The notes under the pieces: generated by a model
The model's database searches: none
What the model was told of the DNA's origin: nothing
The model's input: only the letters and a program-made list of their open reading frames with translations
Shown: positions 839 through 48,785 of the stretch, piece after piece
Layout: every line of letters starts with the position of its first letter
Numbering within the stretch: the stretch's first letter is position 1
Made by a program: the position numbers and the translations under genes
Assembly (NCBI GenBank): GCA_951406725.2
Contig: OX597828.1
Coordinates: forward strand, 56,296,001-56,360,000
DNA: 64,000 bases
Direction: 5' to 3'
From: Octopus vulgaris
Lineage: Eukaryota

Positions 839-2068
839 ATTCGTTTCCAGGCCATGTATTCAAATGAGCGCAAAGACGTTGGAGGACAGAAAGAGACAGC
901 GTAATAGTAATTGAGCAGTAGACATTACGTCGACAGGAAGCCATGAGGAGAGTCAACGAATTAGTTAAAAATGAAACAAAAAAGAATGCAAAAGTGAAGG
1001 TCGTAGAGAAAAAAGAAAATAAACGGAAAGAGAGAAATAGAGGAAGAGAGAAATCAACAGAGAGAGAGAGAGAGAGAGAGAGAGAGAGAAGGAGAGAAAA
1101 CTAGAAAGGGAAAAGGAAAGATAGGCAAAATGATACTTCGTCGATAAGACATACTGCTTGTTGGGAGAATGCCGAATACTGTAACTGTGTAACGACGATC
1201 ACAATGATTTCATATCCAATATTGAAGTAATAAACTTCATAGGAGAAATGTATTTATGTGAAACCTGGCAAAAATCTCCAGTTACTATGATTGATATTTT
1301 ATCGATAAAATAGAGTAAAAGGCTAAAAGTACTGTGATGAGCAAATCTAACACACAAACATAAAATTCCAGTCGCCAAGAGAGAAGATTTCACAGTGAGA
1401 TGAAATAAGAAATGCACCGTCCTATGTTAATCTAGTCTAGAGCGTATAGCTGCAATTGGAAAATGAAGATTTATTCACTGTAAACCATCTGGTAATAAGC
1501 CAGTCGTTCTTTTTATCTTTTAACAATTTTACATCTTCAACTTCATCATCCCCTACCCGTCTCTCCCTCTGCCTCCTGATATTGCCAGACAAACGACATA
1601 AAAATATAAGTTTATGAATCTCTCCCTTTCAGTCTCAATATCTCTGCCTCTCTCTCTCTCTCTCTCTCTCTCTATATATATATATATATATATATATATA
1701 TATATATATATATATTTATATCCATGTATACATGTATGTATTTATCTATCTATACATGTTTAAATACATATGTATATTTATATTAATATATATATATATA
1801 TATATATATATATATACACATACAAATATGTATATACTTACATGTAAACAGTATACACACATCTCTCGCTGTGTACACACAGACACATACACACACACAC
1901 TCATATATATATATATATATATATATATATATATATATATACAAATTGAGATAGCGCTTATGGCCATATAGGACATTCGACTCACTAGGAAGAACAGCCA
2001 AAACTCATACCGCTAAATAGTTGTAATTCTGAAATAGAAAGAGAAATAAAAACTTTTACCCCTTTCAT

Positions 2069-2157
2069 GTCTGGACTATGCATAATTTCGGCAAACTTTG
2101 GTAAATAACTTAATTAAATTAAATTCATTTACATCTGGCGTGTCTCGTCAGCAGAGA
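2069..2157 (-). ncRNA. type I hammerhead ribozyme, mirror copy, slightly degenerate
   Basis: Minus strand reads CTCTG CTGACGA GACA...TGCC GAAA TTATGCATAG TC CAGAC. The core is intact, with one mismatch each in stems I and II. Confidence 0.65.
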
Positions 2158-2389
2158 GCCTAGGACGAGTATATGTCCACGAGGTTATGGTAAAGAAGCC
2201 TCCAGTCCATATGCTCTAAATTTTCAAAATTCTACCGCGATCGCGCGGTCTTCTCAGCAGCAAATATAAACTGCGGATTTAATTTCAAACTTAGCCAAAA
2301 AATCATTAATTAATAAATATAAGGGTAGCAAAAAATTCTAGAAAAAATTCTCCGCTACCAGCCTCGTGGACATATACTCGTCCTAAGGC

Positions 2390-2479
2390 TCTCTGCTGAC
2401 GAGGCACGCCAGATGTAAATGAATTTAATTTAATTAAGTTATTTACCAAAGTTTGCCGAAACTATGCATAGTCCAGAGA
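2390..2479 (+). ncRNA. type I hammerhead ribozyme
   Basis: Stem I TCTCTG(2390-95)/CAGAGA(2474-79); core CTGACGA 2396-2402; stem II GGCA/TGCC closing a ~47 nt AU-rich extension; GAAA 2458-61; palindromic stem III CTATGCATAG; GTC cleavage triplet 2471-73. Confidence 0.85.
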
Positions 2480-45678: not shown

Positions 45679-45787
45679 GCGATTATCTCCCTTACACCGG
45701 AAGAAATCACTCATTACCTCCCCTTATTTAGAACTCTTTTGAACATAAACATAACGATAACTCTATTCAACATAAACATAACGTCGT

Positions 45788-45826
45788 AAGAAATTTGAAA
45801 AGCTAAATGCGAAACCGGTCTTTCTT
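45788..45826 (+). ncRNA. variant minimal hammerhead (U3-A8) in the 3-prime UTR
   Basis: Identical to 41813-41851. Confidence 0.65.
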
Positions 45827-48785
45827 CACAATTATCTCACGATAAGAGAAAAAAAAAATTAATATTCTTCAGACATATTGACGCAAATATATATTTTTTA
45901 ACATTTAAGCCTTCTGTAGTTTTTACACTTTTTACTATTTTCTCTCTCTCTCTCTCTCTCTCTCTCTATATATATATATATATATATATATATATAGGGA
46001 CGGTATTATTGAAATACCATCACGATTGACAAGCGAATTATCAGCCATACAGGTAAATTAATAAAATATGTACATACATACACAAGGGTACTATTTCTAT
46101 CTTTCGCAATATAGGTACTCATGTAGTACCCTTGCGTATATATGTACATATCTAATATTGCATGTATATTTTATATATATATATATATATGCATACATAT
46201 ATAAATCGATAGACACAGAGATTAACCTATTATATATCTAATTCATATAACGTTAGGTTATCAGCTGCTCTTATCAGGACAGCATCAACCCCGCTCCCAA
46301 TGATCATCGGCAAATAAAAACTGGAATCCTCAAAATTCCACAACATTTGGGATTCGAAATCTCTGACTTTCAAAAGTGTTCGTATATCGACCATCTGTAA
46401 GAATTTAGGACTGAATTAAAAGTAATCGCTAAAATAGTCTCCACTTGTCCTCACTATCACAATCTTCATCTCATCTTGCCAGGATTTAGAAAACATCTTT
46501 CTCTGCGGATCCAGTTTATCTGGAAACTAATATGTTAAATGTCCATATGTTCTTTGATACTATAGAATGATATGGATAGGGACACCCCATAATTCAACCT
46601 ATCATAGAATAACTAAGATGTCCAACACATCTTGGCAGCAACTTTTCCAGCACTTATAGAAGTTAGCACTCGTGTATGTATCTGTGTGTGCATGAGTGTG
46701 TGTTTGTGTGTGGTGGGGAGCGTTGATGTGTCGGTGATTGTGTGTTTGTGTGCATATATGGAGTTGTGCTATGGTAGTTAATGTGTATTTATGCAACTGT
46801 TTGGAAGTCAGTCTTCTGGATTTATTTGCAGTTGAAAGACCCAGTTTTATCATATGTCATATGACATGTTTTCATGTTAGATGTATGATGTGACTAACTA
46901 TCTGTTGAATATTTAACCACTTAATCACTTTGAACGTTATACGGATATAGAATTAGAAGACTTATTGAATCTGATGTTTAGAGTGAAGTTTAGCTAATGT
47001 AAACTTTGATATTTCAGAATTTAGGACTCTTTTACAAATGTATAAGTAATTTTACGCAAAATAAAAAGTCTACCTTTTAAAACTGTTGCTTTGTTACACC
47101 ACATTTATATTATAAAGCATGCTGAGTTCTATTCAATATTTGATGTGCCGAGCGAACTGAATGTGAGACTAAAATCAATTCTAGTTATCTATTAGAAATG
47201 TCTATCTTACGCTGGTTAATAGCAAAATTCTATTACCAAGATGACGCATTCGTAGTACTTTTCAGTTTATCACCGGGGAGTCGTCATGCTAATATAAAAA
47301 ACTTGTATTAGTTTTATTCCACTTTTTTACTCGATTAATGGTTGGTTACTGAACCGAATAACCAATCCATTATTTGATTACGTATTTGATTTATCTATCA
47401 ATAAGTTACATTTGTTAAAATAATTTCCTTGTCATTAGCGATATATTTAATGACGGCTAAATATCTAAACAAAGGAATAATATAGAGTTCAAATAGGTTC
47501 AATACGTGTGTTTAATATTAATATAAAGAATCTATCGAGATATAAAAATTCTATTTAGCGCTCAAATCCAATTCAACTGTTTCAGCTTTTTCTCAAGCTC
47601 ATTGTTTTCTTTACTCAAACTCTATCGTATAACATCTGTAGTAAATTATAGTTTCTTAGAAGACGAAAATGTATATTTTTTTTATTACCTTCCTATATTC
47701 CTTGTACTGCTTTTGAATCATCGTTCTATTTACTTTTGATACAAGTTTTTTGTAATCACTTAAAAAAACAAACAAACAAACATGTAATTAGTAATGAGGA
47801 CAGCAATGGATCGTAATCTATTTTCTTTTTTTTCCGTTAGAATTACTTTTGCATTTTAGAAACTAATTTTCAACGTCTTGGGCATGTCTTGCGCCGTGTT
47901 ATACGCGAGTATATTAATTTCACAATGTAGCTTCTGTAGAAAGATGCCACTTTTATTATTTAAAAGACATAAATATTCCTTTCGTTTTCAATCAAGGCAA
48001 CTATCCTTTATATCAAAATCCGTTTCGAGAAAATGAACCATCTATAATTCACCAAAAGATTAATTGTTACAAAAAAGTTAAATAACTTCAAAGGAGGATG
48101 AGATTCACGTCAGGGTTTGGCTCTCCTGTGCGACGAATCTACTAGTTATTTAAGACTTCTGTTGTCTGTGATCTCGACTGCGTATTAAACTAGACGTCGC
48201 ATTTGCTTTATTTTGTGCTTGTATGCTATGTGTTAAAAGATGCAGACGCACATGTGAGTATTGAATTATATCGATATCATATGACTATCAATGTTTTCGT
48301 GATATAAACACTTTAATCTCAGAAAAGCACACCCACCTAACAAACTAATAGTTTACCATCACGTTTCCATTAAAATAGATATGTTCAGCCAAGTTTCAGT
48401 GCATTATATTCACACATATAGAGTGCAAAGAAATGGTTTTCCCGTTAGACAGTTTAGCATTGCATATAAGATAAGATAATTATAATTTAACAACAGAGAA
48501 TAATGGTTTCTTCTTCCTTTCAATCCAGTGCTCTGAAAATTATGTTGTGCATAGCTGAAATTATCTATTCCGGATTTCTTTAGCTGGTCCACAATTGATA
48601 ATTGAGCATTGCACAGGGAATTGCTGAAGGCTATAGCATATTTTCAAAACAATTTAGACAGTTAATTTGATAATATATACATGAAGCTGAAATTGCAAGG
48701 TAGAATTTCTTCAAGCAATATACCATTTATCTGATGAACTATCGGGAATCCTCTGAGCCACACCAATTTTACATTACCATATATA

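Follow-up and report, generated by a model that had tools for sequence, protein, structure and literature searches.

Head-to-head inserts with hammerhead motifs beside (TA)n tracts in Octopus vulgaris: a frameshifted Penelope-like element and two short elements

Introduction

Metazoan non-LTR retrozymes are short, non-coding repeats of low GC content with one type I hammerhead per unit, a closed head-to-tail order and a self-paired fold, and they coexist with Penelope-like elements (PLEs) (PMC7229834; bioRxiv 10.64898/2026.07.22.740005). The parts of these two sources used here give unit lengths of 150-450 bp (PMC7229834) and 51-972 bp (the bioRxiv preprint), and the latter describes retrozyme monomers, dimers and multimers only. 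Mobilisation in trans by the reverse transcriptase (RT) and GIY-YIG endonuclease of PLEs has already been proposed in both; which enzyme moves animal retrozymes is posed there as an open question, with PLEs as candidates by co-occurrence and terminal-repeat likeness.

PLEs of the Neptune/Nematis type, in the portions of PMC8557442 and PMC3846280 drawn on here, have partial-tandem pseudo-LTRs with a hammerhead, an inverted 5'-truncated copy at the 5' end, a one-sided tail of 30-40 nt, a DKG motif, a CX2-5CxxC linker, a C-terminal GIY-YIG domain and (TA)n as target; how PLEs make their inverted structures is likewise posed as open. Minimal PLE hammerheads have a palindromic helix III suited to action as dimers, according to the relevant sections of PMC4209133. 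In work with a purified PLE protein, which is predicted to be dimeric, both DNA strands were cut and extended, AT-rich DNA was preferred and the RNA used was uncleaved (PMC11167929). Here we describe three head-to-head inserts that adjoin (TA)n tracts in a 64-kb window of the Octopus vulgaris genome, the window being the whole stretch of DNA analysed, within which all positions are numbered.

Results

Inverted arms and hammerhead motifs in three inserts

A preliminary description of this DNA had reported three elements with long inverted repeats and type I hammerhead motifs with a palindromic stem III. Inverted-repeat alignment confirmed the former for all three (Table 1), and a relaxed type I descriptor matched hammerhead-like motifs with a self-complementary helix III in each. 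This descriptor gave six matches in the window, all six within the three elements (cores at +2396, +19414, -19382, +41820, +45795 and -40371), compared with a mean of 0.05 (maximum 1) in 60 block-shuffled windows, a contrast that is somewhat flattered because the descriptor was loosened after the motifs had been seen. A stricter first scan recovered the motifs of elements 1 and 3, missed both motifs of element 2 and gave one match outside the elements, at -52643, with a helix III that is not palindromic. Hammerheads on both strands, previously listed as a shared trait, are indeed present but follow from the inversion, there being one motif per family. Among the Rfam matches listed (150 of 158 rows in one of the scans), none of the motifs was matched by a hammerhead model, and the matches that did occur were driven by microsatellites or hairpins and fell below gathering scores. 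The motifs of elements 2 and 3 are non-canonical. Monomer folds of the hammerhead stretches were no better than those of shuffled sequences (z between -0.7 and +1.0 in five stretches and -1.25 in the sixth). Their palindromic helix III likens them to the minimal PLE hammerheads, and the opposite-strand pairs are similar to those known at spacings of 100-700 bp (PMC4209133, in part).

The distance from an outer end to a (TA)6+ tract is 1-24 bp in all six cases, against a background of 3.4% of non-tract positions within 30 bp of such a tract. The earlier placement in or next to (TA)n thus stands as regards proximity, but only element 2 is inside a TA tract. No target-site duplication was readable at the elements.

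Table 1. Features of the three inserts (window positions)
Element	Feature	Positions	Strand	Details
1	Bases between (TA)n tract and left arm	1942..1959	.	18 bases, not family sequence
1	Left arm	1960..2362	-	Partial copy, unit positions 288-465 then 1-226
1	Mirror hammerhead, left arm	2068..2157	-	Arm alignment
1	Right arm	2362..2702	+	Partial copy, unit positions 1-341
1	Type I hammerhead motif, right arm	2390..2479	+	Full core, three helices
2	Long arm	19050..19394	-	345 nt, with 108-nt 3' extension
2	Block common to elements 1 and 2	19194..19253	-	Versus 2508-2567; 41/60 identical, same sense
2	Mirror hammerhead	19335..19386	-	Relaxed descriptor, core -19382
2	Central loop	19395..19401	.	7 nt, 12 nt upstream of right hammerhead core
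2	Short arm	19402..19639	+	238 nt, ends in (TA)n
2	Type I hammerhead motif	19410..19461	+	Relaxed descriptor only
3	Flank repeated inverted at PLE inner junction	39822..39864	+	43 bp, ~310 bp outside PLE, E 3e-13
3	Inverted 5'-truncated PLE copy	40175..41509	-	Alignment; hammerhead core at 40371
3	Inverted flank copy patching head-to-head junction	41509..41551	-	1 difference in 43
3	Upstream pseudo-LTR	41546..42035	+	Partial tandem; hammerhead core at 41820
3	Frameshifted PLE reading frame	42036..45678	+	Domains, translations, homologues
3	Downstream pseudo-LTR	45679..45943	+	Ends in (CT)n(AT)n
3	Hammerhead, downstream pseudo-LTR	45788..45826	+	Predicted cut after 45820

Element 3, a Penelope-like element

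Judged by its predicted protein and repeat architecture, element 3 (40175-45943) is an ordinary frameshifted PLE of the Neptune/Nematis type. Its frame encodes, in order, an N-terminal region, the DKG motif, RT, a CX4CxxC linker and the GIY-YIG endonuclease. Pfam RVT_1 and GIY-YIG both matched, below their cut-offs; the long N-terminal region had no Pfam match, in which it is unlike published Neptune/Nematis PLEs as far as the cited sections go. The protein has 377 homologues, many with both RT and GIY-YIG, tblastn gives the domain order, and a CX2-5CxxC-type motif is found in the last 200 aa of 87 of 120 homologues. The PLE had been called autonomous-type, but its reading frame is not intact: the frame changes near 44220 and 45235, inside RT-EN, and probably at two more points upstream. 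This copy is dead, but its family, which includes a 96% identical protein (P0003), may not be.

The element has the RT with C-terminal GIY-YIG, pseudo-LTRs, inverted 5'-truncated partner and tail of EN+ PLEs, as well as the DKG motif, linker, (TA)n target and pseudo-LTR hammerhead of the Neptune/Nematis group. Its upstream pseudo-LTR is a partial tandem in which 41546-41965 repeats 45521-45940 at 97%. The inverted copy corresponds to 44363-44910 and then, after a 293-nt deletion, to 45204-45940, and also bears a tail equal to 41966-42016 that at ~47 nt exceeds the published 30-40; in inverted orientation it is about 98% identical to 41546-42016, 44363-44910 and 45204-45943. Where published PLEs have a palindrome at the inner junction, element 3 has an inverted copy of 43 bp of local flank, with microhomology of 6 nt with the main copy and 1 nt with the inverted copy. 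The downstream hammerhead has a 6-nt palindromic helix III and a U3-A8 core, a variant known among minimal PLE hammerheads, whereas its helix II has 2 bp, with one extra U before the core, compared with 7-8 bp in schistosome motifs (PMC4209133, in part). Of the three copies of the pseudo-LTR, the inverted one agrees with the downstream one up to the cut site and with the upstream one beyond it, the pattern expected of a circular template; with Fisher p values of 0.08-0.24 we do not rely on it.

Searching metagenome contigs with the PLE protein found no other copies. The PLE shares no detectable sequence with element 1 or element 2 and is for this reason not established as their partner.

Element 1 and its 465-nt unit

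Element 1 (1960-2702) consists of two differently permuted partial copies of a 465-nt unit, joined head to head at 2362. The left arm runs through the closure point of the unit and the hammerhead cut site and lacks unit positions 227-287; the right arm lacks positions 342-465. The arms pair over 1960-2184/2362-2587 (5 substitutions and 1 gap in 226) and over 2309-2362/2649-2702 (1 difference in 54). Since each arm holds sequence absent from the other, neither is a fold-back copy of the other. They share three letters (unit 60, 77 and 132) that are in the minority in most contig runs. The right-arm hammerhead has a 6-bp helix I, core CTGACGA at 2396, a helix II extended to 55 nt, GAAA at 2458-2461, a 12-nt self-complementary helix III and a predicted cut after 2473; the long helix II and the 12-nt palindrome distinguish it from the retrozyme motifs in the sources cited, insofar as these were available. 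Its mirror fails the relaxed descriptor; helix II there contains an A.C mismatch, and helix I is shorter. On the left the element is bordered by 18 unrelated bases (depth 0-3 in public contigs), on the right by ATG(CA)n, and a repeat search found no direct terminal repeats at the locus. We considered whether 2649-2702 might be single-copy flank taken up at the junction, in the manner of element 3, and rejected this, the stretch being high-depth family sequence.

In public contigs, other copies close the four segments of the element 1 family into a 465-nt loop. The link 2184/2185 is bridged by at least 2 records and the links 2308/2309, 2587/2588 and 2648/2649 by at least 5 each, counting records with 31 or more letters on each side among the 31 listed (there were 3496 more pieces). 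Each bridging record carries 4-18 differences and hence represents another copy. Junction 2362 is bridged by none of the 31, and a loose contig end at this position carries on in unit order. The closure is drawn from short overlapping contigs whose runs contain at most 45% of the words of the locus, and the runs are therefore probably from other individuals or species. Three large runs each contributed 1008-1200 placed contigs, and the runs containing the family fall under four organism labels. None of the runs listed as containing the family is recorded as RNA; run X10 (145 contigs), only guessed to be RNA, was excluded as evidence of transcription.

The GC content of the unit is 0.357 (36%); it carries a single type I hammerhead and lacks an ORF (longest stop-free frame in the doubled unit 63 aa, 32 aa from ATG). 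Its circular fold has z values of -3.8 in sense and -3.0 in antisense (25 shuffles). No PLE coding remnant was detected in it by tblastn with 120 homologues (best E 5.6) or by the GIY-YIG endonuclease profile (E at least 1.2; control 7e-49). A multi-copy family of a short, non-coding, low-GC unit with a predicted type I hammerhead suggests that it likely works as a non-LTR retrozyme, which it also resembles in closed order, self-paired fold and coexistence with a PLE. At 465 nt it is slightly longer than the range in PMC7229834 and within that in the preprint. In contrast to the head-to-tail arrays of known retrozymes, as the parts consulted present them, its copies are dispersed, partial, permuted and head to head. 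That all four links are bridged implies copies in tandem or permuted form, but no array of the unit was seen in public contigs or in the window.

Ten of the 15 joints listed in unit coordinates (12 further joints lie beyond these) are inversions. They represent 8-9 distinct breakpoint pairs, each in one contig per run, and six of the ten, marked as skips, are necessarily head to head. Six rows of a second listing, with 5 more beyond, add 4 breakpoint pairs if same-strand; joint 2346-2322 of that listing, whose kind is not given, was left out of the count. None of the joints listed equals the junction of this locus. The summed depth of the unit reaches 194,000, versus 26-78 for junction contigs (depth, not copy number), and drops about 10-20-fold in the bin containing the junction. 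Around the loop, depth is 3,000-8,000 near unit 400-70 and over 100,000 near unit 180-340, and given this unevenness copies of the unit may, at low frequency, continue into some longer element. Of the loose ends, the 24 listed were assessed (313 more lie beyond). Of the contig sequence placed from three DNA-like runs, 1% continues into unlike sequence, a weak measure as contigs break at branches and one run, X1, has no recorded kind. The uneven depth may also reflect preferred 3' ends, but since depth is not copy number we place no weight on this.

Element 2 and other inverted repeats

The arms of element 2 (19050-19639) form an inverted repeat, 19158-19394/19402-19639, with 1 substitution, 1 gap and a 7-nt loop. 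The 108-nt extension of the long arm pairs with the arm and forms hairpins (fold z of the long arm -6.8 on the minus strand, -5.2 on the other). The hammerhead at 19410-19461 has a 4-bp helix I, core CTGATGA at 19414, an 8-nt palindromic helix III, a predicted cut after 19457 and a U.U at the base of helix II, for which axolotl HHR_Amex2 offers a precedent (PMC7229834, in part). The elements had been called sequence-unrelated; this fails for elements 1 and 2, which share a 60-nt block. Of 300 shuffles, one attained the likeness of 41/60; with 500 shuffles, two scoring schemes again gave one each, but a third with cheap gaps gave 128. Element 2 is probably a short hammerhead element related to element 1, and may be either a retrozyme relative or a PLE terminal-repeat stump. 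Its pattern had no other copies in metagenome contigs, nor did a search of genome contigs find any; one match in a viral contig had only 20 nt in common and was taken as chance.

The supposed decayed fold-backs at 13267-13825 (76%) and 46066-46151 (74%) are real inverted repeats, but have no hammerhead core by the relaxed descriptor and no significant likeness to the three elements. Two other stretches, 57044-57247 and 63685-63826, were rejected as family members, having no hammerhead and a likeness reached at best by 1-5 of 100 shuffles.

Discussion

We consider it probable that the window contains a frameshifted PLE, two permuted retrozyme-like pieces and a related short element, each inserted head to head by PLE enzymes; for each of the three inserts an origin through such enzymes is likely. 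The preliminary description had read the short elements either as extreme PLE truncations or as self-propagating hairpins mobilised in trans by PLE RT/GIY-YIG. For element 1 neither form holds as stated, and what survives is a retrozyme-like, non-autonomous element probably mobilised in trans by these enzymes. Transcripts of the 465-nt unit would be multimeric or circular. A PLE RT/GIY-YIG protein acting in trans would then cut both strands of AT-rich DNA, and each DNA end would prime its own reverse transcription to give two 5'-truncated cDNAs. These would be joined by microhomology, in element 3 via the 43-nt patch copied from nearby flank. As both arms of element 1 cross the predicted cut site intact, the template should not have been a linear self-cleaved monomer, and as other copies invert at no fewer than eight further points, the palindrome should be an insertion product and not a replicating form. 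From one locus with non-nested arms (element 1) and one with a flank patch (element 3) we infer that two-ended priming is the likeliest cause of the element 1 arms. A doubtful extension, which we offer tentatively, is that head-to-head PLE insertions in general arise by two-ended target-primed reverse transcription, in which a PLE dimer uses the two ends of a single cut as primers and copies either one RNA circle or a pair of RNAs held together by the palindromic hammerhead helix III; this retrozyme family, its permuted inverted pairs numbering in the thousands, would then be a direct genomic record of animal retrozyme circles as PLE substrates.

The inverted arm could instead stem from fold-back by self-priming, with cDNA or an antisense RNA as template, an idea put forward for rotifer PLEs, and PMC3846280 (the part used here) interprets junction palindromes in this way. 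This accounts equally well for element 2, with its near-perfect palindrome, nested arms and short stem-loop at the centre. Simple self-copying cannot yield either arm of element 1, though, given the segments that each lacks, so extra template jumps or later trimming would be needed, and the junction of element 3 holds flank DNA and not a palindrome. We regard self-priming as rather unlikely. It differs from two-ended priming in the mechanism step only and agrees on the identity of the elements.

That both short elements are 5'-truncated ends of other autonomous PLE families, pseudo-LTR stumps with an inverted partner, is quite unlikely. In the sections available, opposite-strand hammerhead pairs have already been called probable truncated PLEs (PMC4209133), and an inverted partner with unequal 3' ends is a PLE hallmark (PMC8557442). 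For element 1 alone such an origin is very unlikely: the sequence past the hammerhead returns to its start within 465 nt with no coding trace, so that element 1 does not represent an ordinary PLE end, and the 1% passing into unlike sequence argues weakly in the same direction. Its opposite-strand pair derives from a closed non-coding unit and not from a truncated PLE as in PMC4209133. For element 2 alone the stump is a plausible reading, somewhat short of an even chance, with the block in common with element 1 against it.

A hairpin that itself replicates, as a self-propagating class of fold-back ribozyme elements, would fit the 99% palindrome and 7-nt loop of element 2 and the three minority letters shared by the element 1 arms. 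If it replicated, the same loop and ends should recur; element 1 copies instead show at least eight distinct breakpoints at single-contig depth, none of them the locus junction among the joints listed. Because the inversion points vary and depth falls at the junction, element 1 is not a replicating hairpin; the three elements, moreover, have three unlike centre structures, and we consider this reading highly improbable. The chance that the palindromes arose artefactually, in assembly or by fold-back of long reads, is negligible: although the element 2 arms differ at 2 places only and no contig run spanned the element 1 locus, divergence between the arms is 1.3-2.7% in elements 1 and 3, the flanks are not mirrored, the structures are asymmetric, and contigs from independent runs contain similar junctions, two of which were each present in two runs.

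Returning to insertion by PLE enzymes, the short elements also resemble the non-autonomous PLEs of the Chlamys clade (MRC1), non-coding passengers with PLE-type insertion into microsatellites. This clade, in the passages of PMC8557442 and PMC9977147 relied on, is described without canonical hammerheads, unlike the short elements here, and its passengers resemble the 3' end of a partner, whereas no such partner was identified for elements 1 and 2.

The elements are thus of known kinds, and the PLE itself and the opposite-strand hammerhead pairs are already described; what is new is a footprint linking retrozymes to the PLE machinery. The available text of PMC7229834 contains no mention of octopus, cephalopod or "opposite", its "invert" passages that were examined reading "invertebrate", and the literature covered, which excluded most subscription papers and whose supplements may list cephalopod motifs, yielded neither cephalopod retrozymes nor head-to-head retrozyme insertions. 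A retrozyme-like family with the head-to-head signature of PLEs offers a structural footprint bearing on which enzyme moves retrozymes. The unit being a short loop, each inverted pair records the start and end of two cDNAs; nested and non-nested arms may therefore be counted genome-wide, which would separate self-priming from two-ended priming.

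Inverted structures in the window

A masked self-comparison of the window (34% GC, with many microsatellites) recovered the three inverted structures claimed in the preliminary description, the last of them a Penelope-like element (PLE). A relaxed descriptor found 6 hammerhead motifs, all inside these elements, versus a mean of 0.05 per shuffled window (n = 60), a contrast to be read knowing that the descriptor was tuned after the motifs were known. No Rfam model matched any of the 6. Helix III is palindromic, as described, being self-complementary over 12, 8 and 6 nt in elements 1, 2 and 3, respectively. 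The adjacency to (TA)n was likewise borne out: 6/6 outer ends lie at most 24 bp from (TA)6+, against a background of 3.4% of positions within 30 bp. Two decayed fold-backs had been counted as members of the same system; they have no hammerhead core and no likeness to elements 1-3, and should be dropped from it.

The first of these two, at 13267-13825, is an old inverted repeat (76%), possibly a decayed fold-back DNA element, which surrounds a (TATC)n tract and carries a 15-nt tandem repeat in one arm only (13320-13392). A strong imperfect hairpin (63685-63826; 80% self-complementary, fold z -13), in which a hammerhead core was not found, lies between (GATA)n and unique DNA. A weak palindrome (57044-57247; 68%) aligned with the element 1 unit at a borderline level (1/100 shuffles), a match that nhmmer did not report.

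Features of the window; unit positions are counted in hammerhead sense
Feature	Position	Strand	Description
Element 1	1960-2702		inverted repeats, hammerheads
Element 1 partial copy, left	unit 288-465/1-226	-	
Element 1 partial copy, right	unit 1-341	+	
Element 2	19050-19639		near-perfect palindrome
Element 3	40175-45943		PLE
Element 3 main copy	41546-45943	+	partial tandem with pseudo-LTRs, DKG motif, RT, CX4CxxC linker, GIY-YIG
Decayed mariner-type transposase fragments	8505-9441, 23077-23751, 3818-4240		two of the copies oppositely oriented and 76% alike

Element 1 is built from a closed 465-nt unit

Element 1 consists of segments in the order A, X, B', A', Y, B, where primes mark inverted orientation. 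Evidence for further copies comes from one search and one alignment of public contigs, whose runs contain no more than 45% of the words of the locus and whose summed depth does not equal copy number. A first reading of B as flank captured at the junction was ruled out by the depths of Y and B (12,000-115,000). Among the 31 records listed, diverged contigs that reach 31 letters or more into each side bridge A-X (2 records), X-B' (5), A'-Y (5) and Y-B (5); none of the 31 bridges the link at 2362, where the arms meet (3496 further pieces lie outside this list). The family order in hammerhead sense is A', Y, B, X' and then A' again, a closed unit with one hammerhead, 36% GC and no frame above 63 codons. 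Its circular fold beats shuffles on both strands, and a search of the unit for PLE coding traces found none. Judged from sequence, the unit has the anatomy of non-LTR retrozymes as presented in PMC7229834 (short, non-coding, hammerhead-bearing and closed), and the family likely works like one.

Extended helix II (2403-2457) varies within the family: 5/6 listed variants keep pairing or regain it via a second variant, the second pair is G-C or A-U, and in one contig the extension is 33 nt shorter. A recurrent 3' end may lie near unit position 249, since at 2610 six contigs of one run depart from the unit and continue as (TA)n.

The hairpin is not the replicating unit of the element 1 family

The preliminary description had offered a self-propagating hairpin as its second option. 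For the element 1 family this fails, since inversion points differ between copies and none of the listed inversion joints equals the locus's own junction (2362), where depth drops 10-20-fold. Fifteen joints were listed in unit coordinates (12 more lie beyond them, and one row of a second table was excluded); 10/15 are true inversions and 5/15 collinear. The inversions among these listed joints fall into 8-9 different breakpoint pairs, with one contig per run and a depth of 45-61. The 6/10 marked 'skips' are necessarily head to head, the other 4 have no stated direction, and no 'goes back' joint occurs among the rows listed. Six rows of the second table, which does not state strand, add 4 breakpoint pairs if same-strand.

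Element 2 and its kinship

The loop of the element 2 palindrome measures 7 nt and lies 12 nt upstream of the hammerhead core; one arm is extended by a structured stretch of 108 nt. Read in the same sense, elements 1 and 2 agree at 41/60 letters, a likeness reached by 1/300 shuffles, and by 1/500 under two scorings and 128/500 under a third. By eye, an element 1 family variant from contig loose ends matches 17/18 letters of this common block. We lean towards a sister retrozyme. That element 2 is the pseudo-LTR stump of a PLE outside the sequences at hand is a serious, somewhat less probable alternative. No likeness of the element 3 pseudo-LTR to elements 1 or 2 was detected that would mark this PLE as their mobiliser. 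Contig searches reached no other copies of element 2.

Thirteen letters at its centre (19396-19408) match, by eye, an element 1 family variant in loose ends at 2016-2017, possibly a common motif or chance. On the two sides of element 2 lie three direct repeats of a ~1.2-1.5 kb unit, diverged to 71-73% (17865-18693, 20032-21224, 21540-22738).

Element 3 is an ordinary PLE insertion

The reading frame of the main copy is interrupted by frame changes. A second copy, inverted, 5'-truncated and internally deleted, stands head to head with it and has a tail of ~47 nt. The inner junction is filled by 43 bases (41509-41551) that repeat flank 39822-39864 in inverted orientation (1/43 differing), with microhomologies of 6 nt and 1 nt, a detail absent from the preliminary description. 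Octopus bimaculoides and Argonauta hians supply the closest named protein relatives (54-60% identity), with bivalves lower (47-52%); a cephalopod host is likely. In its core the element 3 hammerhead shows the U3-A8 variant that Cervera and de la Pena (PMC4209133) reported. Craig et al. (PMC8557442) describe such a layout with its tail, and also the linker present in Neptune and Nematis elements, with a proposed role in microsatellite targeting.

The N-terminal region (42036-43391, 451 aa) has no Pfam match and a second half rich in Asn, His and Thr; PMC3846280 describes Asn-rich inserts in rotifer Penelope elements. The downstream pseudo-LTR has 5 private changes (45825-45860) within 118 nt past the hammerhead cut site, exceeding prediction from the per-copy rate (p 0.002); 2 of the 5 perfect a small hairpin.

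A candidate route to head-to-head insertion

In elements 1 and 2 both arms cross the predicted cut site intact, as do all three element 3 pseudo-LTRs, which rules out the linear cleaved monomer as template. Self-priming, discussed for inverted arms in PMC3846280, fits element 2 but does not fit element 1 without extra steps: each element 1 arm holds sequence absent from the other (unit 227-287 versus 342-465), which rules out that either arm was copied from the other by simple self-priming. We propose that reverse transcription would start from both ends of one cut, with multimeric or circular RNA as template, and that the two truncated cDNAs would be joined via microhomology, sometimes with a flank-templated patch. 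Purified PLE protein, a predicted dimer that mainly uses uncleaved RNA, cleaves both strands of AT-rich DNA, extends them and starts reverse transcription at two internal RNA sites, accounting for the tail (PMC11167929).

The observation is real and its constituents are of known kinds. A 2014 paper (PMC4209133) took hammerhead pairs on opposite strands, 100-700 bp apart, as probable truncated PLEs. That retrozymes travel as PLE passengers was a proposal of 2020 (PMC7229834), and a 2026 preprint (bioRxiv 10.64898/2026.07.22.740005) argued for it on phylogenetic grounds. A 2026 Octopus vulgaris repeat annotation (PMC13282606) lists recently active Penelope families, and a term search of it met neither ribozyme nor retrozyme. 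Our literature search, mainly of listings, found no report of head-to-head retrozyme insertions, and 'twin priming' occurred in none of the 20 papers listed out of 32. What is added here is that permuted, head-to-head insertions of a retrozyme-like family form a structural tie to PLE machinery, and that such pairs can be counted to test how PLE inversions arise.
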